DNA of 64,000 bases from Escherichia phage ukendt. Positions 17,036-63,358 of this stretch are shown here, in pieces (the stretch's first letter is position 1; every line of letters begins with the position of its first letter). Location of the stretch: sequence record NC_052661.1. One strand, written 5' to 3'. The position numbers and the translations under genes were made by a program. Under the pieces are notes generated by a model, which saw only the letters and a program-made list of their open reading frames with translations, was not told the origin of the DNA and did not search any database.

Positions 17036-17064
17036 GAGAATACAGCAATGGTTTAGGAGTGGTT

Positions 17065-17736
17065 ATGAAAAAGTTTGTTGTTTACAGTCGTCTTTCTAAA
17101 CAGAAAAAAGGTGAGGCACAATATGGTATGGAGAGCCAAGAGAACGATATCCGTTACTTCTTAGACTCTGTGCCTGACGCTGAAGTTATTGGTCAATTTT
17201 CTGAATACTATTCGGGTAAGGGCGATTGGAAGCAACGTAAGGAACTGGTTAAAGCGGTTGAAATGTGTAAAGCTACCGGAGCAACTTTATTGGTAGCTAA
17301 AGTTGACCGCTTGGGTCGTAACAACGCCTCCGTAGCAACTCTCCTAGAAATGATCGATGTTAAGATAGCCATCATGCCAGACGCAGATAAAATGGTTATA
17401 CAGCTTCTGTCTGTTTTGGCTGAACAAGAAGTTAGAGGTATTGCTGATCGTATTAAAAAGGGTCTTGCTGTAGCAAAAAGCAAAGGTGTTTTATTAGGCA
17501 GTGCTAATCCTAAAACTGCCGCTGCACGTAGAAAAGGAAAAATGGAATACAACTCTGTTAAAGCAGACGCTTTTGCAGAGACATTCCGTGAACGCTTGGA
17601 GATCCTTAGAGATTTAAATACACCTTACAAAACTATTGCTGAAAAATTTAATAGTAAGAAAATAGCAACAGCACGTGGTGGTAAATGGGATGCTAAGACT
17701 GTTTCTCGTTTGTGTGCCAGACTGAACATTAAATAG
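17065..17736 (+). CDS. serine recombinase (resolvase/invertase family)
   Basis: YSRLSKQ catalytic-Ser context, VAKVDRLGRN and ADRIKKG motifs, C-terminal HTH; track start 17059 is GTG. Confidence 0.75.
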   Translation: MKKFVVYSRLSKQKKGEAQYGMESQENDIRYFLDSVPDAEVIGQFSEYYSGKGDWKQRKELVKAVEMCKATGATLLVAKVDRLGRNNASVATLLEMIDVKIAIMPDADKMVIQLLSVLAEQEVRGIADRIKKGLAVAKSKGVLLGSANPKTAAARRKGKMEYNSVKADAFAETFRERLEILRDLNTPYKTIAEKFNSKKIATARGGKWDAKTVSRLCARLNIK

Positions 17737-24565: not shown

Positions 24566-25366
24566 TTATTTGTTTAAATGGTCTTCAACCATTTTGATAA
24601 AGCCTTCATCACTGAAGACTGTTCCTGCTTTCTCTCGGTAGACAAGCACTCCACGTTCTTCGTAGAGAGTTTGTTCTACAAAATTCAAACCTGGGTTAAC
24701 TACAACCATCTTAACCCCAATATTCAGGGCAGGGAAGAGTTCCCAGTTGAAGTTGATTACTTGGTTAGAGCAGCCTACAACGATAACCATATCTTGTGAT
24801 GTTAGTTGATCCAGTTTGTGATACATGTCTGTGTAGAGCGGTGCATTCTCACCAAAAAACACCACATTAGGCTTCACATATTTGTAATCGTCTACATCAA
24901 TAGCTGCGTAACCCACATCTTTGATAATTTTGTTATCAACAACAACTTCTGGCAAGAAACCATGAACGTGCAATATTTCTTCTCTATCGATTCCAGCGCG
25001 TTCTAATAGATCGTCAACGTTAGTAGTGATGTTAATAATCCTTTCTGCACCGTATTTTTCGAACCATTCTCCAATCTGAAGATGTGCTGGATTCGGGTCA
25101 ACTTTCTCTAATTCCACGCGACGTTTATTGTAGAAGTCGTGAGTTTTACGGTAGAGGTTATATCCTTCCACATCTAAGCCACCCATAGCATCAGGAATAC
25201 CCTGTTCTTGCTGATAACCGTCACGGAAGTTGAAAATGTCACAGACTTCTGTCAAATCGTATTCATCCCATAATGCCTTTCCAGAATCTGTTTCTGTGCG
25301 AAATGTTTGGATTCCGCTGTCAGCACTTAGTCCCGCACCACTAATAAAATATACACGTCTTGGCAT
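24566..25366 (-). CDS. Sir2-like NAD-dependent deacylase/ADP-ribosyltransferase family protein
   Basis: sirtuin motifs GAGLSADSGIQTFR, ITTNVDDLLERAG, HVHG, KPNVVFFGE; no Cys4 zinc module. Confidence 0.65.
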   Translation of the reverse strand: MPRRVYFISGAGLSADSGIQTFRTETDSGKALWDEYDLTEVCDIFNFRDGYQQEQGIPDAMGGLDVEGYNLYRKTHDFYNKRRVELEKVDPNPAHLQIGEWFEKYGAERIINITTNVDDLLERAGIDREEILHVHGFLPEVVVDNKIIKDVGYAAIDVDDYKYVKPNVVFFGENAPLYTDMYHKLDQLTSQDMVIVVGCSNQVINFNWELFPALNIGVKMVVVNPGLNFVEQTLYEERGVLVYREKAGTVFSDEGFIKMVEDHLNK

Positions 25367-25896: not shown

Positions 25897-26550
25897 CTAT
25901 ACCAGACTTTGTAGGTATTTGTCAAGGGCTTCTTGATCACCTTGGCAAACATAGCAACGGAAGTCTTGAGACGAAGGTTGTTTATTTTCATCCCAATCCC
26001 AATAAACATTACCTTTATAACGTGAGCCAGGAAACTCAAAAGAGGCTGTATGTGTAATGTATCCTGGGCCACCAGTGAAATCACAGAATGAGAATTGAGG
26101 GTATGCCGCCTTTACTGCCTCAATAAACCAAGCTTTACGATCTAATGCTTCATTGATGCTATATGCATGTCTCTCCATTTCTTCCCAAGTTTTCCAGACA
26201 CTTCTCTCATCAGGAGAAAAGACAAGCCATTCTGGAAGGTAGAGAGTGTCATAGTAATCATCATATTCGATCTCGGAGGCGCACGAAGCTGACTCCTCCA
26301 GTTTTGAGTAATCAAAAGCCGAATATACCCACCAACCATCTTCCAGTAAGGCTTTGATAGGGACGAAGCCTTTATCAACATATTGATCGAATTGTTTGAC
26401 ACGGTGGCTTGTGCAGTCTTCAAACTCACATTCTAAACGATAGGCACCTTTTCGACGAGCCTCAAGACCGTGTGTACTGAAAATAACAACACTTCCTTCA
26501 CCATCGTTACGATCTACTTGATAAGCAACTACTGGTTTTGAATTTGACAT
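25897..26550 (-). CDS. hypothetical protein (217 aa)
   Basis: ORF track. Confidence 0.5.
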   Translation of the reverse strand: MSNSKPVVAYQVDRNDGEGSVVIFSTHGLEARRKGAYRLECEFEDCTSHRVKQFDQYVDKGFVPIKALLEDGWWVYSAFDYSKLEESASCASEIEYDDYYDTLYLPEWLVFSPDERSVWKTWEEMERHAYSINEALDRKAWFIEAVKAAYPQFSFCDFTGGPGYITHTASFEFPGSRYKGNVYWDWDENKQPSSQDFRCYVCQGDQEALDKYLQSLV

Positions 26551-27233
26551 TATTTCTCCTTATCTAGAAGATTGTTAGACAAAAACACGGCACGAGCAAA
26601 ACCACGTGCGGTTAGGGATCTAAGTTGTTTTGTTTTTGCACTAGCTCCACCTAAGCTTTTCCAACCCCAGAAGCAGCCTATATGATCTACTGGTTTCTTC
26701 ACTGGTTGAACAAAACCATTGCCGTGCCAAATACAAGTTTTCTTTGTATACCCATCACGGGTAGGCATTTTAGGATGAAAGCTCCCTTCCTCTTCAAACA
26801 AATACCCACCATACTCATAAGGATCAAAGTAAAAATCGGGTTTACGCCATAAGGTTGAAAGTTTACCTACTGGGTTCTCAATCATCCAAGGAACATTATA
26901 TTTGTTACCCAAAGCTTCCACTACACGAATATTAGCTAAAGCTTCATCCAATTCCTCTGTGCTACGTTCGTGTTTGCTACCACTACCTGCTAACATAGTG
27001 CAAGGTGGAAATCCAAAAATAATATCGGGTTTAGGTATCCCATGATCTTCAGGGTTGAATGTAGAATCTATCCAAGCATTCACATAGGTTATGTTTGGGT
27101 GCTCCATCCTAACCTCGTATTTACCGTGATCCCCTTCATCAGCGTTTACACAAAAACACTTGTGACCTGCTTCGGCATAACGTAACACCATGATCCCAGA
27201 TCCGTCAAACATAGACAAAACTGTTTTACTCAT
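26550..27233 (-). CDS. DNA cytosine-C5 methyltransferase-like protein (short, atypical)
   Basis: motif I FDGSG, motif IV GFPPCT (PCQ-like), motif VI ENPVG; start placed at MSKTV after RBS ggagggg. Confidence 0.4.
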   Translation of the reverse strand: MSKTVLSMFDGSGIMVLRYAEAGHKCFCVNADEGDHGKYEVRMEHPNITYVNAWIDSTFNPEDHGIPKPDIIFGFPPCTMLAGSGSKHERSTEELDEALANIRVVEALGNKYNVPWMIENPVGKLSTLWRKPDFYFDPYEYGGYLFEEEGSFHPKMPTRDGYTKKTCIWHGNGFVQPVKKPVDHIGCFWGWKSLGGASAKTKQLRSLTARGFARAVFLSNNLLDKEK

Positions 27234-27639
27234 TACCCCTCCATTCAAGACAAGCCATAACTTTACGCCAATCACTTTCTGTAAGAAAAATCTCGTTTGC
27301 TTTCTTCCACAAATCTAAATCGTGAAGGGTTGGAATACGATATGTTAGTTCACAGAATCTATGCTCTTCTTCTGTAATATAACCAAAATGCAGAGCCACA
27401 TCGTGAAACCAACACCAACCATGCATCTCTCGAACAACATGGTCATGCTGAGACATTGTTTTATGCCGTAAACCTAACCAACAAGGAACAGATACTTTAG
27501 TAGTCTTTAATCTGTGATCAACAATATTAGAGTATTCAATAATAGCTGTCAGTTTCAATCGTGCTTTTTCTAAATCCTCGTGGGTCACTTTGAAATAACT
27601 TTCTGAAAGATATCCACACATATTAATAACCTCCTTCAA
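27226..27639 (-). CDS. hypothetical protein (137 aa)
   Basis: ORF track. Confidence 0.45.
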   Translation of the reverse strand: MKEVINMCGYLSESYFKVTHEDLEKARLKLTAIIEYSNIVDHRLKTTKVSVPCWLGLRHKTMSQHDHVVREMHGWCWFHDVALHFGYITEEEHRFCELTYRIPTLHDLDLWKKANEIFLTESDWRKVMACLEWRGNE

Positions 27640-30982: not shown

Positions 30983-31291
30983 TCAACAAGTAATTTCAAA
31001 AGGTGTATAGGGTTCCGTATTTCTCATGATCCAAGGACTGCTAGGATTGCTCGGATCATAAGGACCAAAAGGTTTTATGGTAGGTTGTGTTTCTTTCTTC
31101 TGAATCTCTTCAAAAATACGACGAAGTTCAGAATATTCTTGATCCACCATAAGATTCGGTGCATCCGATTCTACAGTTTGCAGGTTATCTTCCTTAAAAA
31201 CAATCTCACGAACAAGATTAACATCTTCTGTTTCTAAGATAACTTCTTTACGGATATTACCTACACTTTGAATAATTGTAATCTTATACAT
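30983..31291 (-). CDS. hypothetical protein (102 aa)
   Basis: ORF track. Confidence 0.5.
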   Translation of the reverse strand: MYKITIIQSVGNIRKEVILETEDVNLVREIVFKEDNLQTVESDAPNLMVDQEYSELRRIFEEIQKKETQPTIKPFGPYDPSNPSSPWIMRNTEPYTPFEITC

Positions 31292-32034
31292 TAATCCTCC
31301 TCAAGAGTTGAATAAAATTGAAGACCACCGTCCATATCGAAATAAGCAAATGTTAAGTTATTATTGAACACAGATCCAGTATCCATATAAACACGATTCG
31401 CATTGATAATAGGTGTTTTTACATAAGAGTGTCCATGGAACACATAGTCCACACCCATCACAACAGGAAGTTTCATTCCCTCTTTAGCACAGTCCACCAT
31501 ATCTCTGTCCCACATAAGTGCTTCAGCAAAACGGTTTTCCTGTGTTTTTGTCATCTTCAAAGTGTATTCTGGAATATCTGTTACAGGGAGATATTCCAAA
31601 GAAGATGGATACCCACCATGAATAAACGCAAGTTTCATGCCTCTGTAGTTAACAATGAGAACAACAGGTAAATCTTCTGTCATCATTGCTAAGGCTGTAG
31701 CTCCTTCTTCACCACATTCTTCAAGGACTGTATATCCTCCATTTTGATACCAACACTCGAAGTAGCTACGATCTCCTTCCAGCATACCTTTAATCATCAT
31801 GTCTTCATGATTTCCACGAATAGCGTAGCGATTGTGTTTACGAGTAAATTCTAAAACACAACGAAAGTTTTGCTTTCCACGGTCAGTAAGATCTCCTAAA
31901 GATACAACTACATCTGTATCTCGGATACCTAACTTTGCCTTTCCTTTTTCATACAAATTATAACAACCGTGTAGATCTCCAATTATAAAAAGATCTTGAT
32001 CGCTTTTAACAGTAATTTCTCTATGTATGATCAC
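31291..32034 (-). CDS. Ser/Thr protein phosphatase (calcineurin-like metallophosphatase)
   Basis: GDLHG, GDLTDRG, GNHE motifs. Confidence 0.8.
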   Translation of the reverse strand: MIIHREITVKSDQDLFIIGDLHGCYNLYEKGKAKLGIRDTDVVVSLGDLTDRGKQNFRCVLEFTRKHNRYAIRGNHEDMMIKGMLEGDRSYFECWYQNGGYTVLEECGEEGATALAMMTEDLPVVLIVNYRGMKLAFIHGGYPSSLEYLPVTDIPEYTLKMTKTQENRFAEALMWDRDMVDCAKEGMKLPVVMGVDYVFHGHSYVKTPIINANRVYMDTGSVFNNNLTFAYFDMDGGLQFYSTLEED

Positions 32035-33650: not shown

Positions 33651-34160
33651 TTAAACAAAATAAAATGGTTGAGAGAGGCCCAAACGATTCTTTGGGTCGT
33701 ATACATACCAAGCGTATGCTGTCTTATCTGTTCCACCTGCAACAAACGAAGGCCGTTCTGAAAGAACTATAAGGTTTGTCGGTGGATTCTTTTGATGGAA
33801 CTCTCGTCGTTTCTTTGACTCCAAGAAGCCCAACCGAAGAAGATAAATACAAACATCCGCCTCTTTTAAGCTCTTTTCCAAGAACTCCATTGCTAACTTA
33901 AATGGAGGGTTTGTGATTATAATGTCGGGACGATTTTCCCACTCGTGACTAAAATAATCCTTACCTTCTTCAAGTTCACAATATTCTGAACCTTCAGGAA
34001 AATGGCGATAAATCGCTTCAGCTTCACCTCTGCAAGGTTCTGCAAAAACCCAACCTTCTTCCTTTAGATTTTTGAAATCTATAACACTAAACAAACTATT
34101 GATTGCTTTTTGCGGTGTAGGATAATAATCGCTCGTTGGGCGATCATAATCTAATGCCAT
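33651..34160 (-). CDS. putative N6-adenine methyltransferase (NPPF motif)
   Basis: DIIITNPPF catalytic motif IV; small (169 aa). Confidence 0.55.
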   Translation of the reverse strand: MALDYDRPTSDYYPTPQKAINSLFSVIDFKNLKEEGWVFAEPCRGEAEAIYRHFPEGSEYCELEEGKDYFSHEWENRPDIIITNPPFKLAMEFLEKSLKEADVCIYLLRLGFLESKKRREFHQKNPPTNLIVLSERPSFVAGGTDKTAYAWYVYDPKNRLGLSQPFYFV

Positions 34161-34623: not shown

Positions 34624-35316
34624 TTAAATAGCGGTTCCTTCGAAATCCGCCACATTTACGAGATTAATATTTTCAGATTTAGAAGTCAAGTTGTTTTCTG
34701 CAACAGATTTTTCTTCAGTATCCGCCTCGTTACCTGCCACGTTACGAGGTTCTTCTTCACCGTAGGGATTACCGAATTTCAAAAGATTGATCAATTCTTC
34801 TTTGGAGAAGTTTTCTAAATCATCGTCTGTTAATTCAATAATCTCGTCTTGTTCTTCAACAAATGTTTCACCACCAGAAAAAGCATCTCGCTTTTTAGCT
34901 ACTTCCATAGCTTGTTCTGGTGTTGCCCCTGCGTCAAGAGCAGCTAAAGCAAAGTCTGACCCACTTCCTACTGCATAATATTCTTCATCAATCGGATATG
35001 CACGTGTTGGGTTGTTACCTTCGTGCAGGAAAATACGCCCGTCTGGATGAACAACAAGTGCAATAAACTCTTCATCTTCTTTATCTGGATCAGAGTGAAT
35101 CATCAAACCAGGGACAGCATCACGTGCTGCTTCGCACTGTAGATTTTGTTCAAACCATTGAAAGAAAGAAAGCACGGAGGTCAGACGACCAGCACCACCT
35201 ACAAGGTAATCTCCAATTTTTCGGACCTTTTTGAAATTAATAGAATCTACACGTCCACCAAAAGTTACCTTACCGTCACTCAAAATCTTATTTTTGGTTG
35301 CAATAATTGTCGTCAC
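34624..35316 (-). CDS. HslV-like Ntn-hydrolase peptidase with acidic C-terminal extension
   Basis: N-terminal MTTIIA (Thr nucleophile), KKVRK, GGAG, AVGSGSDFALAALDAG align in order with E. coli HslV as recalled. Confidence 0.65.
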   Translation of the reverse strand: MTTIIATKNKILSDGKVTFGGRVDSINFKKVRKIGDYLVGGAGRLTSVLSFFQWFEQNLQCEAARDAVPGLMIHSDPDKEDEEFIALVVHPDGRIFLHEGNNPTRAYPIDEEYYAVGSGSDFALAALDAGATPEQAMEVAKKRDAFSGGETFVEEQDEIIELTDDDLENFSKEELINLLKFGNPYGEEEPRNVAGNEADTEEKSVAENNLTSKSENINLVNVADFEGTAI

Positions 35317-37310: not shown

Positions 37311-37571
37311 TTACTCCGCAATTTGAGCCATGAGATCACGCAGTTCGGTAAAACCGCCTACGTATGTTACCTCCCCGTTCACTTCAGACAGAATTTGTGG
37401 AAATGTGCGTGGAGGAACTCCGGTAAGATCAACAACTGTTTTAGTCATTGATTCTAAATCGTAGTCTTGGTCAAGACTTAAATATTCAAACTGTTTATTG
37501 CGCATGGTTAATAGTTGTTTTGACATTTCGCAAAATTGACAGTTAGGTTTACCAAAAATTACAAATTCCAT
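37311..37571 (-). CDS. glutaredoxin/NrdH-like redoxin
   Basis: CQFC active-site motif in a small thioredoxin-fold protein adjacent to rml and nrd genes. Confidence 0.75.
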   Translation of the reverse strand: MEFVIFGKPNCQFCEMSKQLLTMRNKQFEYLSLDQDYDLESMTKTVVDLTGVPPRTFPQILSEVNGEVTYVGGFTELRDLMAQIAE

Positions 37572-38413
37572 TACCTCTCCTTATTAAGTAATACTGCTAA
37601 AGACCGTTCAATACCTTTATTTAAATCTGATTTTGTAAGATAGTGACTGGTTACTAATTGTGACTTCACCGGACGTGCTGCTGGAGCATTATAGGTTGAA
37701 GCTGATACCGCCGATATCTTAACAGGTTCTGGCATCTGTGTCAAGATCTTTTCCGCAAACTCCGCCCAAGAAATAAGATGGCTTCCTGCAAAATGGTAAG
37801 TCTTAACAGACCTTGACCAACCTGTTTTTAATACTTCAAAAATAGCTTCTGCTAAATCTGGAGCATATGTTGGACAAGAGAACTGATCAGCAACAATAAT
37901 AAAATCACGTTGTCCATCATTATAGCGAGACAACATGGTTTTTAGAAAGTTATTTCCAAATTCGCTATATACCGAGGCTGTTCGAATAATATATGCATTT
38001 GGGTTAACTCCTCGCACCATTTTTTCACCAAGTTCTTTCGTATACCCATAATTGTTTATTGGGTTAGGTGTAGTATCTTCAAAAATAGGATGAGAATAAT
38101 TAAAAATATAGTCTGTAGAAATATGCACAAAATCAATTTTAAGTTTACTGCACACTGCTGCAATGTTTGCAGGGCCGTAGGCATTAACAGCCAAAGCAGT
38201 AGCAAAATCATGTTCTGCTTTATCTACAGCCGTATAAGCAGCGCAATTAATAACACCATCTACATAATCTTCAATAATAGCGTTGCGCACGGCTTCAAAA
38301 TTTGTAATATCTACACGTTCTTTAGGATAAATTAAAGATACGTTTGAAGGAGCCACTTTACGTAAAGCTTGTCCCAGTTGTCCATTACCACCCAATACCA
38401 GATATGTTAGCAT
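37571..38413 (-). CDS. rmlD: dTDP-4-dehydrorhamnose reductase
   Basis: N-terminal GGNGQLG Rossmann motif, RmlD-like length, last gene of the rml operon. Confidence 0.8.
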   Translation of the reverse strand: MLTYLVLGGNGQLGQALRKVAPSNVSLIYPKERVDITNFEAVRNAIIEDYVDGVINCAAYTAVDKAEHDFATALAVNAYGPANIAAVCSKLKIDFVHISTDYIFNYSHPIFEDTTPNPINNYGYTKELGEKMVRGVNPNAYIIRTASVYSEFGNNFLKTMLSRYNDGQRDFIIVADQFSCPTYAPDLAEAIFEVLKTGWSRSVKTYHFAGSHLISWAEFAEKILTQMPEPVKISAVSASTYNAPAARPVKSQLVTSHYLTKSDLNKGIERSLAVLLNKER

Positions 38414-38973
38414 ACACCCTCACTACGTAGCTGTTGAAAAGACTTAGCCATTGCATCTTTTGTTGATAAGATAGGTTTAAAATCTTCGTCAAAAATCATA
38501 TCGAAGCCCCAATCAATCCCTATATCAGGATCATCCCAACGTAAACTTTGCTCGCTGGAAGGGTCGTATGGAGTTGTGCATTTGTATTCGAAGATAGCAT
38601 CCATACTCAAGACTATAAAGCCATGTGCCAAACCAGGTGGAAGCCAGAACTGTGTATGGTGTCGTGCACGAAGAACAACACCGTCCCAAGCACCGTAAGT
38701 TGGACTGTCTTTACGTAAGTCTACAGCGAAATCCAATACTTCACCACTTACACAACGAACAAGCTTGCCTTGTGGATTATTTGTTTGGAAGTGCATTCCT
38801 CGCAAAACACCGAAGTTTGATTTAGACATGTTATCTTGAACGAAAGTTTGTTTACCAATAATATCTTCGTATTTTTGTTCATTGTATGTTTCTAAAAAGA
38901 AACCACGATCATCTTTATAAACGTCTGGTTTGATAATTACCGCACCTTCGATTTTTGTTTTTTCTACTTTCAT
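38407..38973 (-). CDS. rmlC: dTDP-4-dehydrorhamnose 3,5-epimerase
   Basis: [10 protein letters not shown] and RGMHFQ motifs; start at MKVEK with ATGA overlap to rmlA stop. Confidence 0.85.
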
Positions 38974-39848
38974 TTTCTCTCCGCTAATTTGAGTAGGTAT
39001 TGCCCGTACTCTGTTTTCTTCAGTGAGTTTCCATGGTACACCAAAGTCTCTAAAGAAATCCACCCTTTTTTGAAAGCAATTTCTTCCAGGCACGCAATCT
39101 TCAATCCTTGGCAGTTCTCAATAGTCTGCACGAATTGACCAGCTTCCATCAGACTGGCGTGTGTTCCTGTGTCAAGCCAAGTAAATCCTCGTCCGAGAAC
39201 TTCTACTTGTAACTTCCTGTCTTCGAGGTAGCTGCGATTGATATCTGTGATCTCCAGTTCTCCACGCGAGGAAGGGGTTACTTCTAGTGCGCGTTGAACA
39301 ACAGAATTATCATAGAAATACAAACCTGTGACAGCATAATCTGATTTAGGATTTTCAGGTTTCTCTTCAATAGAAATAGCTTGACGATTACTCCCAAATT
39401 CAACCACGCCGAATCGTTCAGGATCTTTCACCAAATACCCAAAGATACAAGCTCCGCCCCAAACATCTACCATCTCACTGGCATTAATCAGTAGTTTACC
39501 AAAGCTTTGTCCGAAGAATAGGTTGTCACCTAAAATAAGAGCAACAGAGTCTTCTCCGATAAAATCTTTACCGATGATGAAAGCCTCCGCAAGACCTCGT
39601 GGCTCGGATTGGATTGCGTAAGTGAGTTTTATCCCAAACATAGACCCATCTCCGAGAAGATACTTAAAGTCTTCCTGATCGCCTGGTGTGGTGATGATTA
39701 AGATATCTTTAATGTCAGCCAACATCAATACCGATAAAGGGTAGTAGATCATGGGTTTGTCATACACAGGGAGCAATTGCTTGCTCACACTGCGTGTTAC
39801 CGGATGAAGGCGGGTTCCACTTCCTCCCGCCAAAATAATACCTTTCAT
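38970..39848 (-). CDS. rmlA: glucose-1-phosphate thymidylyltransferase
   Basis: [19 protein letters not shown]-terminal motif. Confidence 0.9.
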
Positions 39849-39856
39849 AACCCTCC

Positions 39857-40849
39857 TTAAATCTTCTCACTCCACCATTGAGGGTTGTTTAAGTACCATT
39901 CAATCGTTGAGTAGAGATCTTGTTCAAATGTAGAGTTTGCACTCCAACCCAGTTCAGACTCTATTTTAGAAGGATTGATTTCATAACGCAAGTCATGTCC
40001 TTTACGATCTTCAACAAAAGTTATCAAGTTGGAAGAAGGGTAGGTTCCTGCTTCTGGATGTACAGCATCCATGTAGTCACAAACCATATAGATGATCTCC
40101 ATATTGGTTTTGGGATTACGTGTTCCAATATTATACGTTTGACCTGGTTCTCCACCTGTTGCCACTTGAAGAATAGCTCGCGCATGATCCTCCACAAAAA
40201 GCCAGTCTCGCACCTGATCGCCTTTACCATACACTGGAATCTTTTTATTCGTCAAGATACTTGTGATGATTTTTGGGATCAGCTTTTCTGGATGTTGATA
40301 AGGTCCAAAGTTATTGGAGCAGTTGGTTATCACAACAGGTAAGTCGTAGGTACGGTGCCAAGCTTTCACAAGATGGTCAGATGCTGCCTTAGACGCACTG
40401 TACGGGCTTGAAGGGGCATAAGCTGTCTCTTCGGTAAAAGGAACGCCAGAGTCTGCCATATCGCCGTACACTTCGTCTGTGGAGACGTGTACGAACATCT
40501 TCAGTTTATTCTTTGGGAGGAGCCTTGCAGCTTCCAATAAATTGTATGTACCAATAATATTGGAGTCGATGAAAGCTCGTGGATTCTTGATAGAATTATC
40601 CACATGACTCTCTGCCGCTAAGTGAATGATGAAATCGGGATTGCACTCTACTACTAAACTTTTGACCTGGGCTTCGTTTGCCAAATCTGTTATACTTAGT
40701 TTAGCGTGAGTGATATCGCCTACATTCTTAATGTCTGCTGCATAGCTCATCTTATCAACGACAAAAACTTCGTTATTGGGATCTTGACAAAGAGAGCGCA
40801 CCACGGCGCTCCCAATAAAACCAAGACCACCTGTTACCAGATAGCGCAT
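39857..40849 (-). CDS. rmlB: dTDP-glucose 4,6-dehydratase
   Basis: [13 protein letters not shown] Rossmann motif and SDR catalytic region. Confidence 0.9.
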
Positions 40850-40858
40850 ACGTTCTCC

Positions 40859-41185
40859 TTACCAGACGTTTTGTGATACTAACGTTTCAGTTTCAATATT
40901 ATACTTATTAAGTAGTTCAAAATAGACCTCATTTGCTTTTTTATTTAAGCTTGTGAGGTCTATGGCACAAGCACCACAACCGCTACACAGCTTGATACCG
41001 AAGACACAATCTTCAGGATCTGCATCATACCACGGGGAAATGTTTTCCAAGCCCAAACCTTCGCAGAGAAACCAATTAAAGTCCCCATCGAACTGGTCTT
41101 CGACTTGTGGATCGTCTCCAAATATTTCTTTCCATTTATCATATGGTGCACCCTGTAACATACGCCATTCGATATCAATACCCAT
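40859..41185 (-). CDS. hypothetical Cys-containing protein (108 aa)
   Basis: ORF track. Confidence 0.5.
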   Translation of the reverse strand: MGIDIEWRMLQGAPYDKWKEIFGDDPQVEDQFDGDFNWFLCEGLGLENISPWYDADPEDCVFGIKLCSGCGACAIDLTSLNKKANEVYFELLNKYNIETETLVSQNVW

Positions 41186-41481: not shown

Positions 41482-41690
41482 TATTCCTCCTTAATTATTT
41501 CAAACTTGGCAACACCATTTACAATAATATGACCACAAGACATAACTCCTAACCAAGGATCGCCGTTTTTCTTCAGGCGTTTACCGAATACATCACAAAA
41601 ACCATTCTTCATTTCGGAGGCTTCATAAGAAGCCCCTTTGTCAAAAACGTCTTTGAATGTGTCGATTATACCAACACATCTCAGAATCAT
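41481..41690 (-). CDS. hypothetical protein (69 aa)
   Basis: ORF track. Confidence 0.45.
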   Translation of the reverse strand: MILRCVGIIDTFKDVFDKGASYEASEMKNGFCDVFGKRLKKNGDPWLGVMSCGHIIVNGVAKFEIIKEE

Positions 41691-42775
41691 TAGAAGTCAA
41701 GCTCCTCATCATCAGAAAGATCTTTGTTAGCTGAATTCAACTTGTAATTAGTTAACTGAATCTCTTGGGCTGCTGACTGAATCAAATCAGGATTCAACCA
41801 TTTTTCCATCCAAGCTAAAGGACTATGTTTAGGTGCTTTAAACTTGGCTTTCATTTTCAATCGACGATAAATAGGAGCAGCATTGAAATAAACCCACTGT
41901 TTAGACAATTCGGCGTTAAGACCTACAATAAAACGACCTTCACTAAACAGGTAGTCACACCACTGTTCCTCTTGTTCAACAACAGTGTCGAGGATCAAAG
42001 TCAACTCTTCAATATTGTCTTCGTAAATTTTACGCCAAATTGGGTCATGCATCAATGCATCAATTACAGCATAATCCATCTTAACATGCAAGATTTCATC
42101 TAGCATAATTTTCTGGATCAGTTTACAAGCCCCAACAAACAGTTGTTGTTCTGCCATAGCAAAAGTAGCAGAGAAGGAAGATATGAACTGAATACCTTCT
42201 AATCCAATCAGGGCTACCATCCCTTTAAGAATCAGCAATCGAAGTTCATCGTTAGCTTCAATCAATCCTAGAGCATACTTATGACCAGCTTCTTCCAACT
42301 GACCCATGATATCAGCAATGATACCCATACGATTGAAAATTTTATCATTAATCATAATCTGATTGATGACTTCAATTGGATCTGGAGTACATTGACGGAT
42401 TATTTCAGAATATGTTAACGCATGGAGAACTTCCATTTCACTCTGCTTCATCATCATAGCACAGGCTTCATTGTTACTCAAGAATGGAGAGAACAAAGTG
42501 ATGATTGATTTTGCAAGAGAATCATTTTCCCATTGGAACGATAAGTTTTTAATCATAACATCATAGTTGTTTTTAGAACAAGCTACGAAATCTTTACGTG
42601 TCTGATCCAGATTGACTTCATTCTCATCCCAATCTTGTGCTTTTTGAAGTTTGTAGAGTTTATGCATTTCTGGATAAGTTACGTTAACAGAATCAAAAAT
42701 CCCTAATTGTTCTCCTAAAAATACTGGATATTTTCCTGTTTTGTAAACTTCATTGTGTAAATTAATTGCTGCCAT
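41690..42775 (-). CDS. nrdB: ribonucleotide reductase class Ia beta subunit
   Basis: R2-type diiron/tyrosyl region and length. Confidence 0.9.
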   Translation of the reverse strand: MAAINLHNEVYKTGKYPVFLGEQLGIFDSVNVTYPEMHKLYKLQKAQDWDENEVNLDQTRKDFVACSKNNYDVMIKNLSFQWENDSLAKSIITLFSPFLSNNEACAMMMKQSEMEVLHALTYSEIIRQCTPDPIEVINQIMINDKIFNRMGIIADIMGQLEEAGHKYALGLIEANDELRLLILKGMVALIGLEGIQFISSFSATFAMAEQQLFVGACKLIQKIMLDEILHVKMDYAVIDALMHDPIWRKIYEDNIEELTLILDTVVEQEEQWCDYLFSEGRFIVGLNAELSKQWVYFNAAPIYRRLKMKAKFKAPKHSPLAWMEKWLNPDLIQSAAQEIQLTNYKLNSANKDLSDDEELDF

Positions 42776-42796: not shown

Positions 42797-42810
42797 AGGG
42801 GCCGAAGCCC
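42797..42810 (-). terminator. hairpin GGGGC-CGAA-GCCCC between nrdA and nrdB
   Basis: identical stem-loop followed by T5 in minus sense; possible attenuator. Confidence 0.5.
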
Positions 42811-42819
42811 CTAGTTTCA

Positions 42820-45060
42820 TCACATCTTGCAAGCTTCACAACCACCATCAGAATCTTCTTGTGCTAAAGAATCTGCTGATTTTGTTCTACTATTAAGGTA
42901 ATACAATGACTTACCACCCAGTCTAGCAAAGTTCAAAATAAATTTCATCTCTTCTTTAACTGATAAACGTCCCCCTACCAATTTAGAATAATCTAACCAA
43001 GAATCACAAGAAATTCCTTGGTCCGTAAACTTGGTAAAGATACCATACATTTCTGCAAGATCTTTAGCCGGAGTATCCCAGGCGGACTGGTAAAACATTT
43101 TCAGTTTTTCATAGTCTGGAACAATAAATAATACACTACCTTTCTGACTTTGTTTATACATAATAGTATCACGAACAGGATACAGAGAGTTAGTAGTATT
43201 GCTTACCAAACTGCTGGACTCATTAGGTGCAATAGCAGCCAAGACACTGTTACGGATACCACCTTGTTCAATGATTTCAGCACGTAAGCCTTCCCAGTCC
43301 ATTTTAAGATCAAAATTACCGATACTGTCTACTGTTTTAGCATAAGTGTCAATTGGTAGCCAACCTTGAGGCCATTTGGTTTTATCGATCCATTCCGCAT
43401 TGCCTTTTTCCTTAGCCAGACGCAGAGAGGCTTTTGCCAACCAAAAGTAATGACGTTCTGCAAGTTCATGCATTAATTTTTTAGCATAAGCATCTGAATA
43501 ATTTACAAAATTACTTGCCAAGTAATGCGCTAAGTTTGTAATGCCTACACCAATAGATCTACGTGCTTTAGCAGTTATTTCGTTATGTTTAAATGGATAA
43601 TCCATTGTTTCAATAACGTTGTCAATTGTCAATACAGTGTAGTATGCAACATCCTCATATTCTTCAGGTAAGACACGACCAGCAACAATAGAAGATAAGA
43701 AGCATAAAGCCAATTCTTGATCTTCTGTATTCTCACCAGTAAAGAGATCCGGCATACTGTGGAAAGCTTTAGTTGGTAAGAAGATCTCTTGACACAGGTT
43801 TGATTGATACACCGTATCCAGGAAAGGTGTATGGTTGTTAACGTTGTCAGCAAAGAACATGTAAATACGTCCTGTTTCTGCACGTTGAACAATAATCTCT
43901 GTCAGAAGATCACGAGCCTTAACAAATTTTTTCTTAATGCGACGACGGCTTACTTTGTCATAAACTGCATCAAACTCTTCTTCACTTTTATACAAAGCTT
44001 CATAAAGTTCAGGAGCATCATCACAACTAACTAACATCCAGTCTTCGTTTTTTGCTGCTCGACGCAAGAACGAACGGTTAACAACAATAGAATAATCTAG
44101 TTTGTCTACTCGTTTATCTATAGGTGTTGTTGGATTCTTCAGTCGAATCAGATCGTCGAAGTCTGGTTCAAGTATGGTAAAGGTAACTGTAGCACTACCT
44201 CCACGGCTTGCTTGCTTCGAAGCTCCAACACTATCTTCCATCCATTTCAGATACGGAAGAAGACCACCATGAATAATACGATTATTCTTAACACCTTGAC
44301 CTGTGGCACGAGTTTGAAGATTAACACCAATACCTGCGTTATTCAACGTATACTCATGAGCTAAGTAATTAGCAATGGCTAAAGATTCTGCCGTATCGTC
44401 TGCACGGAATAAACAACAAGACGCACTTCCTTTGATTGGAGTTCGTAGAGTTGTCAGATACGGCGATGGCAGATTAATCTTAAGATCGCTAACATAAGTA
44501 TAAAGTTTTTTAATATCTTCTATACGGCGTTCTTTTGGTTGGATCTCCATAACCTTCATTGCGATACCAATGAAAAGAAACTGTGGAGACTCATGCACCA
44601 CATCGTTTACTGCATCTCGAATAAGATATTTATCTACCATCTGACGTAAAACAGAATAACCATAAGTTAGATTTTTATTATGCTTTACAATCTTACCGAT
44701 TTCTTTGATCTCTTCATCAGTATAATCCATTTTAGCCCAATGTCCACGTTCTACCATATCATGATAAAAGGTATTCAGTGAAGGGATACTGTGGTATCCC
44801 CCATGAGCCTGTTTGTAAATCATACCCAGAAGAAGCCTTCCTGCCATATCACTGTAAGCTTGTGTTTTCTTGTCAATACACGCTGCAATCATTGCTTTAT
44901 GCAGATCACGTGTAGACACACCGTCATAACACCGCTTCACAGCTTCTAATTCAATTTCAGACCAGTTTAGTTTACCTGCTGCAAATTCAGACCACTTGCG
45001 AAGTTTTTCTGGATTAAACTCCTCTGTCTTACCGTTAGATTTAGTTACAAAACGAATCAA
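42820..45060 (-). CDS. nrdA: ribonucleotide reductase class Ia alpha subunit
   Basis: N-terminal ATP-cone, SNLCQEI catalytic motif, 746 aa. Confidence 0.9.
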   Translation of the reverse strand: MIRFVTKSNGKTEEFNPEKLRKWSEFAAGKLNWSEIELEAVKRCYDGVSTRDLHKAMIAACIDKKTQAYSDMAGRLLLGMIYKQAHGGYHSIPSLNTFYHDMVERGHWAKMDYTDEEIKEIGKIVKHNKNLTYGYSVLRQMVDKYLIRDAVNDVVHESPQFLFIGIAMKVMEIQPKERRIEDIKKLYTYVSDLKINLPSPYLTTLRTPIKGSASCCLFRADDTAESLAIANYLAHEYTLNNAGIGVNLQTRATGQGVKNNRIIHGGLLPYLKWMEDSVGASKQASRGGSATVTFTILEPDFDDLIRLKNPTTPIDKRVDKLDYSIVVNRSFLRRAAKNEDWMLVSCDDAPELYEALYKSEEEFDAVYDKVSRRRIKKKFVKARDLLTEIIVQRAETGRIYMFFADNVNNHTPFLDTVYQSNLCQEIFLPTKAFHSMPDLFTGENTEDQELALCFLSSIVAGRVLPEEYEDVAYYTVLTIDNVIETMDYPFKHNEITAKARRSIGVGITNLAHYLASNFVNYSDAYAKKLMHELAERHYFWLAKASLRLAKEKGNAEWIDKTKWPQGWLPIDTYAKTVDSIGNFDLKMDWEGLRAEIIEQGGIRNSVLAAIAPNESSSLVSNTTNSLYPVRDTIMYKQSQKGSVLFIVPDYEKLKMFYQSAWDTPAKDLAEMYGIFTKFTDQGISCDSWLDYSKLVGGRLSVKEEMKFILNFARLGGKSLYYLNSRTKSADSLAQEDSDGGCEACKM

Positions 45061-45836: not shown

Positions 45837-46835
45837 TCACCATTTAGTATGATTTGTTAAAAGTTGACGATGTTGAATCCAGCCTTTGAAATTGCCAGAC
45901 CAAAACTTACCATTACGATCTACATGGGTAATACCTGGTTCCCAAGAGTTAAAATCCCAAGGAGCATTGATAAACAAATCTTCAAAACAGTTCTCTCCAT
46001 ATTGTTCGCATGTTTCTTGAATTGGAGTGGCTTGATGTTCAAACGGAGAAGCATGAACCTTGCGCCCAGTCAGCAAGCGACCATAGATATCTAAAGCTTT
46101 ATCTTTAGTTGCATTTAAACGACGATAGCTAACCTGTGCACAACATGAAGCTGAAATAGCTTTGGCTTCTTCCAAAGTAAGCACAACAACTTCTCCAGAT
46201 TCATCTTGAACGTAGTATCCACCAAAAACAAAATGATCGTCACCTTCTGTGCCAATATTATCGTAGAAATGGTCTACATAAGGTGTGTGCCATTGCCCTG
46301 GTTTCAGAACTTCTGGTGTAGATCCTTCATACTCTTTGTGCATCTCTTTAGCCAAAGCTTCGATAGTAGGATCGGCTTCTTTGTCATCACGTAGCCACCA
46401 GAAATTTTCATATTCTGTTGCTGTCAGAACTGTTTTAATTCGTTGGAAAGGTTCCAGAAGACGGTTTGCAACTTGTTTGTGGTACCCTGCCAAAGAGAAT
46501 TCTTCTGCAAAACGTGCTGCACTAAGCGCGGCAAGATCCCACCACTCTTGAGCAGTATAACCTGCATCAATAAGAGCGTCATGATCAACACCTTTATCCT
46601 GCATACCAGGTTGGTTAGCCCCAAAACGATAAGGACGAGCAGGTTGATTTCGCACCATTTCAATCAGTGTTTTAACAGGTATAGCACGGCTAGAAGCAGC
46701 ATTACGACTGAACAGGCGGTGAGTCATCAATTCTGAATGAATAATACGTGGATATTCTAGTTCAAAAGTTACAATCTCTTTTCCGTCTTCAGTGATGGAA
46801 TGCGCAATAATACTAGCCGAAATCTGTTTTGTCAT
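45837..46835 (-). CDS. thyX: flavin-dependent thymidylate synthase (ThyX family, long form)
   Basis: ThyX signature THRLFSRNAASSRAIP (RHR..S) and C-terminal HASPFEH; 332 aa. Confidence 0.8.
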   Translation of the reverse strand: MTKQISASIIAHSITEDGKEIVTFELEYPRIIHSELMTHRLFSRNAASSRAIPVKTLIEMVRNQPARPYRFGANQPGMQDKGVDHDALIDAGYTAQEWWDLAALSAARFAEEFSLAGYHKQVANRLLEPFQRIKTVLTATEYENFWWLRDDKEADPTIEALAKEMHKEYEGSTPEVLKPGQWHTPYVDHFYDNIGTEGDDHFVFGGYYVQDESGEVVVLTLEEAKAISASCCAQVSYRRLNATKDKALDIYGRLLTGRKVHASPFEHQATPIQETCEQYGENCFEDLFINAPWDFNSWEPGITHVDRNGKFWSGNFKGWIQHRQLLTNHTKW

Positions 46836-46844
46836 TTTTTCTCC

Positions 46845-47453
46845 TTAGTTTTTAAAATTGTTCAAAGTGTTAAAAACATCCAAACATGTTAGCCACTGAT
46901 CTTCTAAACCTGTGATCACAACATTTGGTTTTTTCTTTAGTTCTTCTAGATGGTTATCTTTATAAGGCGTATTAAAATATATTTTAACCACTTCATCTGG
47001 AAAATATAGTAGGTTATCAGCCCTGTCATCTATTGCTATATCACAAGGCAATAAGTATTTTTCTTTCGTAGCAAAAAAGCCGTTACCAGATCCTTTGCTA
47101 AAATCAATCGTATCTAACGTTCTTAAAACATGCTTATGTTTAGAACTTAAGTGACCACCTTTTGTCACACTTGCGATCAAAAGATTGCTACCTTTCCTTG
47201 AAACATACTTTAAGAAATCTGGCATACCTGGAACAAAACCCATTGTATCATAGAGATGAGGATTATCCAGAAATCCGTAAGGATCTATATTGAACTCCTC
47301 CCTGAAACCAGGAAAGTAGTTGGTAAGATCATAGTCTGCATTTTTTGTGAATGTGTCTATCTTAACACCAAGTCCACTAATCTTATTCAACCATTCTAAC
47401 CAAGCAATATCTAATGGAGCCACAACTAAATCCCAATCACATACTATCTGCAT
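46845..47453 (-). CDS. putative 5'(3')-deoxyribonucleotidase (HAD-like)
   Basis: N-terminal DWD in place of the HAD DxD motif; identification tentative. Confidence 0.45.
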   Translation of the reverse strand: MQIVCDWDLVVAPLDIAWLEWLNKISGLGVKIDTFTKNADYDLTNYFPGFREEFNIDPYGFLDNPHLYDTMGFVPGMPDFLKYVSRKGSNLLIASVTKGGHLSSKHKHVLRTLDTIDFSKGSGNGFFATKEKYLLPCDIAIDDRADNLLYFPDEVVKIYFNTPYKDNHLEELKKKPNVVITGLEDQWLTCLDVFNTLNNFKN

Positions 47454-61751: not shown

Positions 61752-61823
61752 GGCCCTGTAGCTCAATGGGAGAGCTGTCGGCTCATAACCGATAGGTAGC
61801 TGGATCGAAACCAGCCAGGGCCA
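61752..61823 (+). tRNA. tRNA, anticodon CAT (elongator Met or lysidine-modified Ile2)
   Basis: cloverleaf folded by eye; anticodon loop CUCAUAA; T-arm GCTGG-ATCGAAA-CCAGC; CCA encoded. Confidence 0.75.
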
Positions 61824-61828
61824 CCAAC

Positions 61829-61900
61829 GTCTTTATGGTGTAATGGATAGCACAGGAGTCTTCTAAACTCTTAGTCAAGGTTCGATTCCTTGTAAAGACA
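61829..61900 (+). tRNA. tRNA-Arg (anticodon TCT)
   Basis: acceptor GTCTTTA/TAAAGAC; loop CTTCTAA; T-loop TTCGATT. Confidence 0.75.
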
Positions 61901-62099
61901 CCAGAACATTTTAACATGAATTAGCTCAAGTGATTTGAACCCACTACTGATCATGGTGGCAGAGAATGAGGTAAGTATGTCAGACATTATAAACAAAGGC
62001 CACGGTTATATTAGAAGACATAAATGCTCGAAGAGCACCGTTCGCTGAGAACGGGGGTTGGTGGAGTCACCATTCATGGTAAAATGTTTTAAAAAACTA

Positions 62100-62128
62100 T
62101 TGACAACTAACACTATTTTATGTTAGAT
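62100..62128 (+). promoter_or_regulatory. promoter TTGACA-N17-TTAGAT inside tRNA cluster
   Basis: hexamers 62100-62105 and 62123-62128, immediately before tRNA-Ser. Confidence 0.5.
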
Positions 62129-62137
62129 TATAAGCAT

Positions 62138-62225
62138 GGAAGGGCAAATCGACGTGGCGACGAAAACGGTCTTGAAAACCGCCGAGCTTGAAAGAGCCTT
62201 GGGAGTTCGACTCTCCCTCCTTCCG
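62138..62225 (+). tRNA. tRNA-Ser (anticodon TGA), class II
   Basis: acceptor GGAAGGG, loop CUUGAAA, long variable arm, discriminator G, CCA encoded; D-arm irregular. Confidence 0.7.
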
Positions 62226-62232
62226 CCAGATT

Positions 62233-62315
62233 GGTAGATTGGTGAAATGGTAGCCACGACAGTTTGCTAAACTGTAGTCGGAAACGGCGTGTAGGTTCGA
62301 GTCCTACATCTACCG
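62233..62315 (+). tRNA. tRNA-Ser (anticodon GCT), class II
   Basis: stem ACAGT/ACTGT, loop TTGCTAA, long variable arm, discriminator G. Confidence 0.75.
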
Positions 62316-62448
62316 CCAAGTTCTTTTTAATGTAGCTTACTTTAGCAGAGTAAATCTTCGGCAAGTGGCGGTAACCACTTTACCGATACCTCATAGTTAG
62401 TGGTGTGAACACTGGCTATTTTAAAAAGAATTTAAATATTAGTATTTA

Positions 62449-62533
62449 GGTGAGTTAATTCCGTAGGGGTAGCGGGGCAGACTGTAAATCTGTTATCATT
62501 GCGATTCGGGTGGTTCGACTCCATCACTCACCA
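62449..62533 (+). tRNA. tRNA-Tyr (anticodon GTA), class II
   Basis: loop CTGTAAA, long variable arm, discriminator A; 5-nt spacer between acceptor and D-stem is atypical. Confidence 0.65.
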
Positions 62534-62542
62534 CCAAATTAA

Positions 62543-62625
62543 GATGAGTTGGCTGAATGGTTTAAGCGGCGGACTGTTAATCCGTGTTCGAAAGAACAAT
62601 ATAGGTTCGAATCCTATACTCATCG
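62543..62625 (+). tRNA. atypical tRNA: Ser-type class II body with anticodon GTT (Asn codons)
   Basis: acceptor GATGAGT/ACTCATC, 3-bp D-stem, stem GCGGA/TCCGT, loop CTGTTAA, 15-nt variable arm, discriminator G. Confidence 0.6.
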
Positions 62626-62635
62626 CCAGAATTAT

Positions 62636-62711
62636 GGACTTGTAGAGTTAAGGTAAACCCCCAGTCGCCAATAGGCTTCTGGAATTGCAGGTATCGAATC
62701 CTGCCGAGTCC
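62636..62711 (+). tRNA. tRNA-like element (acceptor and T-arm pair, anticodon arm not foldable); possible pseudo-tRNA
   Basis: GGACTTG/CGAGTCC acceptor pairing and GCAGG..CCTGC T-stem with 8-nt loop; no canonical anticodon stem found. Confidence 0.25.
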
Positions 62712-62718
62712 CAGCATT

Positions 62719-62790
62719 GCTCCTATAGTATAATGGCTATTACAACGGTTTTGTAATCCGTGGATCTCTGTTCGATTCAGTGTGGGAGCA
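62719..62790 (+). tRNA. tRNA-Thr (anticodon TGT)
   Basis: acceptor GCTCCTA/TGGGAGC, loop TTTGTAA, T-loop TTCGATT; a few stem mismatches. Confidence 0.65.
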
Positions 62791-63065
62791 CCAACACAAC
62801 ATTAAGAGCACTGTGATTGATCGTCGTATCCTGTGCACAAGGTCTGCTCGAAAGACAGTGTTCTTAGTATTGTGTTGATCACAAAAAGAGTCACCCGAAA
62901 CTTGACCGGAGTAGGGTTGGATGGGGCAAAATGAGAAGCGGCTCTCCCATCGACAGCAACGAAGAATAATATTTGACTTTGGTTTTGTATTATTTAAGTT
63001 AGCTTACCGAACGTAGGGCTAGTCACCCAACGGGATACTCGTCACTGTCCCAATCAATAAAAGTC

Positions 63066-63095
63066 TTGACAACAAATAGTAAAATGTAGTATAGT
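63066..63095 (+). promoter_or_regulatory. promoter TTGACA-N18-TATAGT before tRNA-Gly
   Basis: hexamers 63066-63071 and 63090-63095. Confidence 0.5.
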
Positions 63096-63106
63096 AAAGA
63101 TATAGG

Positions 63107-63177: not shown

Positions 63178-63277
63178 CCAAATTATTTAATAAAGGGTTG
63201 CCAGAAAACTTTCTCTTTTACTCATGGTTTTCTCCTTCTCTCACACTTCTTCTGGTTGCCCTTCATTAAATGATTTT

Positions 63278-63350: not shown

Positions 63351-63358
63351 CCATATAA

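Follow-up and report, generated by a model that had tools for sequence, protein, structure and literature searches.

The genes for dTDP-L-rhamnose synthesis are already a known feature of a well-sampled genus of lytic coliphages, being annotated in phAPEC8 and in dozens of its relatives, and the purpose of such a pathway in a strictly lytic coliphage was raised as a question in print in 2020-2021. Olsen et al. called these rml genes peculiar and suggested that they serve DNA glycosylation (PMC7552041). Maffei et al. described a 'putative dTDP glycosylation machinery' in the phi92-like phages and found these phages exceptionally sensitive to restriction-modification systems despite that machinery (Maffei et al. 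2021; PMC8594841). A 2023 study noted that phage ESCO37 is without the thymidylyltransferase and dehydratase genes (PMC10269720). Here we analyse the rml locus of Escherichia phage ukendt in a stretch of 64,000 nucleotides (nt) of sequence record NC_052661.1, referred to below as the window. The window belongs to Phapecoctavirus, the genus of phAPEC8-like myoviruses of Escherichia coli in the subfamily Stephanstirmvirinae, and its rml set is what is usual in these phages and not a system of a new kind. What is new is the anatomy of the locus, which divides into a conserved rmlC-rmlD core and an optional rmlB-rmlA cassette, and its probable connection with a glycosyltransferase module that is both conserved and mobile.

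More than 40 deposited Phapecoctavirus genomes share the 3.5-kb rml span at 97-98% identity, and most of them name the four genes. A sensitive DNA search among phages recovered the whole set from about 44 Phapecoctavirus records and, at about 65% nucleotide identity, from about 55 phi92-like records (Justusliebigvirus); synteny is kept in more than 100 phage genomes. Many genus records align to query positions 1-1672 only, and about 19 of 63 near-identical ones (about 30%, a count that includes GenBank/RefSeq duplicates) match the glutaredoxin gene grx, rmlD and rmlC without rmlB and rmlA. Nepoznato, ESCO37, Mt1B1_P17 and others carry this rmlCD-only haplotype, and a Klebsiella relative also has rmlC-rmlD only. 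In cultured phages RmlD is essentially limited to Stephanstirmvirinae. Phage records labelled Campylobacter, Klebsiella, Acinetobacter and Pseudomonas (e.g. MG065650.1, MH252123.1) are likewise 97-98% identical to the genus, and their host labels look doubtful.

A complete and intact set of rml genes

The initial annotation had placed a complete rmlB-rmlA-rmlC-rmlD set, with a glutaredoxin gene beside it, at positions 37311-40849. The set is confirmed at exactly this span and far beyond chance. The five open reading frames (ORFs) are co-directional on the minus strand and tightly packed, with no internal stops or frameshifts:

39857-40849, minus strand: rmlB, dTDP-glucose 4,6-dehydratase, 330 amino acids (aa); accessory cassette
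38970-39848, minus strand: rmlA, glucose-1-phosphate thymidylyltransferase, 292 aa; accessory cassette
38407-38973, minus strand: rmlC, dTDP-4-dehydrorhamnose 3,5-epimerase, 188 aa from the ATG at 38973; conserved core
37571-38413, minus strand: rmlD, dTDP-4-dehydrorhamnose reductase, 280 aa; conserved core, the most diverged of the four
37311-37571, minus strand: glutaredoxin (grx), 86 aa, with a CQFC motif; 1 nt shared with the rmlD stop

Translational coupling had been claimed for all four genes, with an ATGA overlap between the rmlA stop and the rmlC start. Read from the sequence, that overlap is present, and rmlC overlaps rmlD by 7 nt (ATGCTAA) and rmlD overlaps grx by 1 nt (TAATG). Coupling by overlap does not extend to the first junction, however, where an 8-nt spacer with a Shine-Dalgarno sequence, TAAGGAGGGTTATG, separates the rmlB stop from the rmlA start. 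In every subfamily member examined, grx follows rmlD. A promoter scan gave no convincing candidate for a dedicated promoter upstream of rmlB, and the rml genes are treated here as part of the long co-directional minus-strand array, an early/middle gene array within which they would be expressed.

Enzyme identity was assigned with NCBIfam equivalog profiles at their curated cut-offs, with Pfam and by alignment to solved structures. RmlB scores 431.7 bits against TIGR01181 (cut-off 365.1; profile positions 1-319 of 321; extended short-chain dehydrogenase/reductase, SDR), RmlA 465.3 bits against TIGR01207 (cut-off 360.65), RmlC 225.8 bits against TIGR01221 (cut-off 155.75; profile positions 1-174 of 176) and RmlD 237.4 bits against TIGR01214 (cut-off 224.05). 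Pfam agrees with NCBIfam for the Rml proteins and assigns the grx product to Glutaredoxin (38.1 against a cut-off of 22.9), its active-site motif being C11-x-x-C14. Alignments to solved RmlA-D structures run end to end.

Catalytic residues are conserved throughout. The best solved relative of RmlB is the Salmonella enterica enzyme 1g1a (E 1.7e-111), and the motifs GxxGxxG (7-13), T124-D125-E126 and Y150/K154 are kept, the last two aligning to T133-D134-E135 and Y167/K171 of 1g1a. RmlA aligns end to end with 4ho0 (E 3.4e-124) and 1lvw; it shows GGSGTRL (8-14), LGDN (106-109), EEKP with EKP at 161-164 and LDTGT (225-229), and its catalytic K23, D108, K163 and D226 are present. Solved RmlC structures match the phage epimerase at E of about 6e-56, with the catalytic residues conserved in RGMHFQ (H61), GKLVR (K70), EYKC (Y130) and WDDP (D147/148). 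RmlD has 3sc6 and 1vl0 as its best solved relatives (E about 1e-43) and keeps GxxGxxG (8-14), STDY (T100) and YGYTK (Y122/K126). Inactivating substitutions and frameshifts, which the initial annotation had named as grounds for doubt, are absent: motifs are intact and ORFs unbroken. The ratio of non-synonymous to synonymous substitution rates (dN/dS) of the four rml genes, 0.03-0.30, indicates purifying selection. We infer that they encode the route from glucose-1-phosphate and dTTP to dTDP-L-rhamnose. Judged by these sequence features, the pathway is very probably active and would yield a dTDP-6-deoxy-L-hexose, almost certainly rhamnose.

A different product, for example dTDP-6-deoxy-L-talose, would arise if the RmlD-like reductase had another stereospecificity. 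RmlD is indeed the most diverged enzyme of the set (54-65% identical between genera, about 42% identical to the nearest cellular proteins, 13 bits over its cut-off), and talose-forming reductases are generally known from the same superfamily. Yet RmlD passes the rmlD equivalog threshold with no other family near, and the depositions of its best solved relatives all name a dTDP-4-dehydrorhamnose reductase or an orthologue; a different product is highly improbable.

Two evolutionary parts of the locus

Three states occur among phages: all four genes, grx-rmlD-rmlC alone with a break exactly at the rmlC start, and more distant full sets. The features that delimit the variable part are the following:

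38983-41069, no strand: haplotype-variable segment with rmlA, rmlB and the 3' part of a 108-aa ORF; presence/absence within the genus
40859-41185, minus strand: 108-aa conserved ORF of unknown function, directly upstream of rmlB; phrog_15453, E 6.5e-47
40854-40858, minus strand: Shine-Dalgarno sequence GGAGA of rmlB, upstream copy of a direct repeat flanking rmlBA
38978-38982, minus strand: Shine-Dalgarno sequence GGAGA of rmlC, downstream copy of this repeat

Compared with the rmlCD-only phage nepoznato, the window is 98.7% identical up to 38982, just before the rmlC start, and 97.5% identical from 41070; the 2,087 bp between these points are replaced by 211 bp in nepoznato. The 3' two-thirds of the 108-aa ORF are swapped together with rmlBA in the rmlCD-only haplotype, and in phages without rmlBA this ORF lies directly upstream of rmlC. 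The GGAGA direct repeat that flanks rmlBA is thus made of two Shine-Dalgarno sequences. At the upstream copy the window reads TAAGGAGA followed by ACGTATG, against TAAGGAGAGAAAATG in the rmlCD-only phage; at the downstream copy it reads GCGGAGA followed by GAAAATGAAA, the homology with nepoznato breaking at 38982.

Composition and divergence separate the same two pairs. The GC content at third codon positions (GC3) is 0.405 for rmlB and 0.413 for rmlA, against 0.302 for rmlC and 0.231 for rmlD (window mean 0.305, standard deviation 0.046). Relative to phage phiWec179, protein identity is 94% for RmlB and 97% for RmlA but 64% for RmlC and 65% for RmlD, and synonymous divergence (dS) is 0.68 for rmlB, 0.56 for rmlA, 1.84 for rmlC and 2.92 for rmlD; the other flanking genes have a dS of about 1 or are saturated. 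The relatives of RmlD form a phage-only clade on contigs of 140-157 kb, down to about 50% identity, with cellular enzymes next at about 42%. For RmlA, cellular RfbA proteins of Vibrio and Pseudoalteromonas are 70-71% identical, as close as the sister genus, and a protein search found no cellular RmlA above about 71% identity. Because the haplotypes, GC3, the comparison with phiWec179 and the relatives of RmlD and RmlA all separate the two gene pairs, we conclude that rmlC-rmlD, with the coupled grx, form an old, phage-specific core inherited vertically across Stephanstirmvirinae. The pair rmlB-rmlA is a younger, optional cassette, moved by recombination and recently exchanged between lineages. 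The bacterial source of rmlB was sought separately by scanning genome contigs for a few peptide patterns, which gave only matches of about 50% aa identity and says little about its nearest relative.

The raised GC3 of rmlB and rmlA with respect to their neighbours is also what a bacterial rfb fragment joined to a phage contig by contamination or chimeric assembly might display, an artefact against which the initial annotation had cautioned. The same arrangement and flanks nevertheless recur at 97-98% identity in 44 phage records that are independent of one another, about 55 further records show them at about 65%, the nearest proteins lie on phage-sized contigs of 140-157 kb, and complete E. 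coli genomes match the rml span at no more than 63% nucleotide identity, in pieces and with no long coverage. With synteny this widespread and a best E. coli match of 63%, host contamination, chimera and recent capture from E. coli are excluded, and the artefact can be regarded as refuted.

The core and the cassette also differ in what they would ask of the host. Enterobacteria make dTDP-4-keto-6-deoxy-D-glucose through RffH and RffG for the enterobacterial common antigen (ECA), and rml-type genes are present in 5423 of 5426 complete E. coli genomes. Since the host makes this intermediate, phage RmlC and RmlD alone can reach dTDP-L-rhamnose: the core would act on the host's dTDP-4-keto-6-deoxy-D-glucose, and the rmlBA cassette would free the supply from the host. 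That rmlBA has been gained, exchanged and conserved is more in keeping with selection for synthesis of the product than with selection for mere removal of the intermediate.

Glycosyltransferases encoded elsewhere in the genomes of relatives

No rhamnosyltransferase had been recognized among the annotated genes. This stands for the window, in which neither tblastn with the four transferases of relatives nor Pfam on 29 unassigned ORFs of at least 150 aa detected a glycosyltransferase. It does not stand for the genus, in which close relatives carry, in another part of the genome, four conserved genes for glycosyltransferases:

L004:13401-16545 (NC_052654.1, outside the window): gp027-030, four consecutive glycosyltransferase genes of 187, 227, 315 and 314 aa

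The relative that bears them is 98% identical to the window over the rml span, and its cluster lies between a tellurite-resistance-like gene set and primase/helicase genes. PHROGs place all four proteins in glycosyltransferase families (E 1e-79 to 1e-149), two being GT-A-like and two GT-B. A total of 132 phage records contain the cluster, from Phapecoctavirus and Justusliebigvirus and, in part, from Klebsiella relatives; 63 of them hold it at 95% identity or above, and those of the phi92 group at about 70%. AlphaFold modelling of gp029 gave a high-confidence model (pLDDT, the predicted local distance difference test, 94) with a GT4-like GT-B fold and generic matches, among them BshA, PglA, SdgB, Gtf3 and TarM; the T4 DNA alpha- and beta-glucosyltransferases are outside its top 50 PDB matches. 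Nothing useful came from comparing the transferase sequences with those of solved structures.

The tellurite-resistance-like set beside this cluster (L004:4476-12078) is an observation in its own right in a lytic phage; it comprises a TerC membrane protein, a 'tellurite resistance' protein, a vWA-TerF-like protein and TerD. A related metagenomic contig (L098) has TelA-TerF-TerD in the same position.

T-even phages glucosylate hydroxymethylcytosine, and a comparable hypermodification of DNA, in which a transferase would move rhamnose from dTDP-rhamnose to a modified base and thereby evade host nucleases, would suit both the position of the rml genes among those of DNA and nucleotide metabolism and that of the transferase cluster beside primase and polymerase. 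Such a use has been proposed (PMC7552041), and phages are known in which genes for the synthesis of nucleotide sugars are clustered with those of DNA glycosyltransferases (preprint 10.1101/2023.12.21.572611). Moreover, gp028 weakly resembles the TET-associated glycosyltransferase (TAGT) family (PF20691, 19.2 bits, threshold 27.5) and matches the T-even beta-glucosyl-hydroxymethylcytosine alpha-glucosyltransferase PHROG (phrog_842) at E 4e-6 over about 40 residues, and the protein at 26550-27275 has motifs like those of C5-methyltransferases. We nonetheless hold DNA as acceptor to be quite unlikely. The TAGT match falls below the gathering score and is confined to the generic DxD region, the C5-methyltransferase similarity reaches only E 0.21, and the gp029 model has neither T4 glucosyltransferase among its top 50 matches. 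The enzymes that would prepare a base were not found either: no dCMP/dUMP hydroxymethylase or TET/JBP enzyme occurs among window ORFs of at least 150 aa, none that modifies bases is annotated in the remainder of the 98%-identical relative's genome, and thyX is ordinary. Finally, phi92-like relatives with the same genes are reported to be exceptionally sensitive to restriction-modification systems (PMC8594841).

Two minus-strand ORFs of the window resemble methyltransferases. The one at 26550-27275 (241 aa) contains the C5-cytosine-methyltransferase-like motifs FDGSG, FPPC and ENP (Pfam DNA_methylase, E 0.21) and may be degenerate or divergent. The other, at 33651-34160 (169 aa), is called 'DNA methyltransferase' in relatives and has an NPPF motif, but its Pfam matches are very weak (EcoRI_methylase, E 0.02).

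A mobile transferase module outside the subfamily

Homologues of gp029 that are 40-50% identical and labelled bacterial occur in two settings, prophages and the chromosomes of Burkholderia and Trinickia. The prophage module consists of a gp028-like GT-A and a gp029-like GT-B gene, sometimes with a gp027-like gene, between lysis genes and terminase, and was found in temperate phages of Pseudomonas, Serratia, Enterobacter and others. It stands directly before the terminase and head genes in these temperate phages, and near Ter genes and primase in the subfamily. The loci are:

L090:7797-10921; L092:5589-7670; L089:9357-10960; L095:714-2317; L099:6358-7960: prophage modules of two or three genes
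L093:3025-8440 (Burkholderia dolosa); L094:2742-9026 (Trinickia symbiotica): adhesin-linked gp029 homologues

In an Enterobacter prophage the transferase trio encloses an RmlB-like SDR of the 4,6-dehydratase type (340 aa), which is a second, independent tie of the module to 6-deoxyhexose chemistry. In B. dolosa and T. symbiotica the gp029-like GT-B gene directly follows those of an invasin/intimin-type adhesin and of an unknown protein of about 560 aa, an arrangement that hints at glycosylation of a protein, the adhesin. The hosts among whose phages the module travels differ in their envelopes, which would favour an acceptor borne by the phage over a host-specific one.

This bears on the remodelling of host glycans, in which rhamnose would be transferred to lipopolysaccharide (LPS), O-antigen or ECA, or the ECA precursor would simply be drained, so as to alter receptors and limit superinfection or the loss of progeny on debris. 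ECA has been proposed as the primary receptor of relatives, and the LPS core as their terminal one (PMC8594841). In the textbook pathway RmlC and RmlD work where the route to dTDP-Fuc4NAc branches off, and the conserved unit is rmlCD alone. A pure drain is hard to square, however, with the repeated gain and retention of rmlBA, which supplies the very intermediate to be drained; with rmlBA gained, exchanged and under purifying selection, the pure drain was ranked low. Transferase homologues in phages of Pseudomonas, Serratia and Enterobacter, whose envelopes differ, favour a phage-borne acceptor, neither the window ORFs of at least 150 aa nor the relative's annotation showed genes of the flippase, polymerase or ligase type, and lasting seroconversion is unavailable to a lytic phage. 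A host acceptor is for these reasons unlikely.

A proposed phage-borne acceptor for rhamnose

The reading that we favour is that dTDP-L-rhamnose would be the donor for the phage's own four conserved glycosyltransferases, encoded elsewhere in its genome, and that the acceptor would be a phage-associated molecule, most plausibly a virion protein. The sequence data show which genes these are, that they are intact and under purifying selection, that the locus has a two-part history and that relatives carry the transferase cluster; the activity of the enzymes, the passage of rhamnose to the transferases and the nature of the acceptor are what we infer. Taken as a whole, with an active pathway, a two-part history and rhamnose feeding the phage's own transferases, this account is on balance probably correct.

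A number of points weigh against it. At the level of the pathway, RmlD clears its profile cut-off by a narrow margin (13 bits), and the stereochemistry of the final reduction, to rhamnose or to 6-deoxy-L-talose, is beyond what sequence can tell. As to the transferases, Pfam matches of gp027-030 are weak and under gathering thresholds (two GT-B, one weak match to the TET-associated family), and the matches of the gp029 fold being generic, donor and acceptor are unreadable from it. The cluster is about 75 kb from the rml genes in relatives and outside the window, and its presence in the window's own genome is deduced from the 63 matching genus records. In the subfamily it adjoins replication and Ter genes and not structural genes. 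Co-occurrence of rmlCD with the transferases is clade-wide and essentially one evolutionary observation. The temperate-phage module is mostly without an rml gene nearby, and the transferases, therefore, need not use rhamnose. In the literature searched, no report of rhamnose on virions or DNA of these phages was found, and no glycosylated virion protein is documented in Stephanstirmvirinae.

More tentatively, the rhamnose pathway and the four transferases might constitute a self-contained glycan-building system of the phage, with a rhamnose oligosaccharide on the particle or, less likely, on DNA; we consider this possible rather than probable. The natural rmlBA-plus and rmlBA-minus haplotypes would then tune dependence on the host's sugar supply. 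If true, no lytic coliphage would have had such a system defined in it before, and the glycosyltransferase pair so often present in temperate phages, between their lysis genes and terminase, would gain a function. The question has become more tractable with the recognition of an rmlCD core, near-isogenic natural phages with and without rmlBA and four candidate transferases. It also has a practical side: phAPEC8-like and phi92-like phages are under development as therapeutic agents against E. coli that is avian-pathogenic or multidrug-resistant, and a phage-made virion glycan could affect immune recognition, stability or host range.

Nucleotide-metabolism neighbourhood and other features of the window

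The placement of the rml genes in a nucleotide-metabolism block, beside glutaredoxin, nrdAB and thyX, was borne out by the annotation of the aligned relative and by Pfam. In that relative the rml genes are flanked on one side by lysozyme, PhoH and an HslV-like peptidase, and on the other by small ORFs, nrdB, nrdA and thyX:

41690-42775, minus strand: nrdB (annotation of aligned relative)
42820-45060, minus strand: nrdA (annotation of aligned relative)
45837-46835, minus strand: thyX (annotation of aligned relative)
46845-47453, minus strand: NT5C-like deoxypyrimidine 5'-nucleotidase, immediately downstream of thyX (Pfam NT5C, 25.8 bits against a cut-off of 24.8)

A location in this nrdAB-thyX-nucleotidase-glutaredoxin block, with translational coupling to glutaredoxin, might be taken to indicate control of the nucleotide pool. 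Unused dTDP-L-rhamnose would accumulate and feedback-inhibit the host's RmlA/RffH, so that the host would stop consuming dTTP and glucose-1-phosphate while phage DNA is replicated; dTDP-rhamnose is an established allosteric inhibitor of RmlA. From what is known of the pathway, however, dTDP is released and recycled when a dTDP-sugar is used, hence the saving would be small, an additional phage RmlA raises consumption, and the four conserved glycosyltransferases are left unexplained. We judge pool control very unlikely.

The gap between nrdA and nrdB holds a strong terminator-like hairpin (42797-42812, minus strand), AGGGGCTTCGGCCCCT followed by a T-run, inside what, but for the hairpin, would pass for a single transcription unit. 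At the scale of the window, genes lie on the plus strand before about 23.2 kb and on the minus strand from 24.5 to 59.5 kb, and plus-strand tRNA genes follow after 61.7 kb. The sign of the GC skew flips at about 24000 and about 60500, coinciding with the switches of coding strand. Accessory genes unusual for a lytic phage, together with the tRNA genes, are:

17059-17736, plus strand: serine recombinase (Resolvase domain)
24566-25366, minus strand: Sir2-family protein
31291-32034, minus strand: calcineurin-like phosphoesterase
34624-35316, minus strand: HslV/proteasome-like peptidase
61752-63672, plus strand: 10 tRNA genes (Met, Arg, Ser, Asn, Thr, Gly, Gln, Pro, Ile, Met)

Comparison with known systems

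The locus is the same as that of phAPEC8 and other Phapecoctavirus phages, with the same operon and neighbours at 97-98% nucleotide identity and no material difference. The phi92-like Justusliebigvirus phages also share operon and neighbours, at about 65% nucleotide and 54-70% aa identity. Within its own genus the window differs from the rmlCD-only phages in carrying the rmlBACD haplotype.

Virus-encoded sugar activation, combined with transferases near genes of DNA metabolism, is a trait shared with the T-even phages and with the DNA-glycosylating phage clusters described in a preprint (10.1101/2023.12.21.572611). In the systems of that preprint, such genes stand beside a C5-methyltransferase and a TET-type oxygenase, or beside a hydroxymethylase of the thymidylate-synthase type, and their GT-B enzymes match the T4 beta-glucosyltransferase. 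Here, in contrast, no base-modifying enzyme was found among window ORFs of at least 150 aa or in the relative's annotation, the GT-B model matches generic GT4 enzymes and relatives are reported to be sensitive to restriction.

With the bacterial rfbBDAC/rmlBDAC clusters and the rffG/rffH genes of E. coli and Salmonella, the phage shares the four enzyme families and their catalytic residues. The phage gene order is B-A-C-D, whereas the bacterial order is B-D-A-C. Unlike bacterial rfb clusters, the rml genes of the window have no adjacent glycosyltransferase, flippase (Wzx) or polymerase (Wzy), their neighbours being grx, lysozyme, PhoH, small ORFs and nrdAB. The rml copies of E. coli match the window at no more than 63% nucleotide identity. 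RmlD is nearer to enzymes of the Firmicutes or Bacteroidota type, scoring 153.8 bits with the Firmicutes-type 3sc6 against 105.2 with 1kbz of Salmonella, and matches named Bacteroidota are about 42% identical.

Giant viruses have their own UDP-L-rhamnose synthesis and glycosylate their virions, by enzymes unrelated to the Rml set described here. Mycobacteriophages also glycosylate their virions, with transferases encoded among their structural genes. The phage considered here would resemble both, in that the virus supplies the activated sugar and/or the transferases for its own particle.

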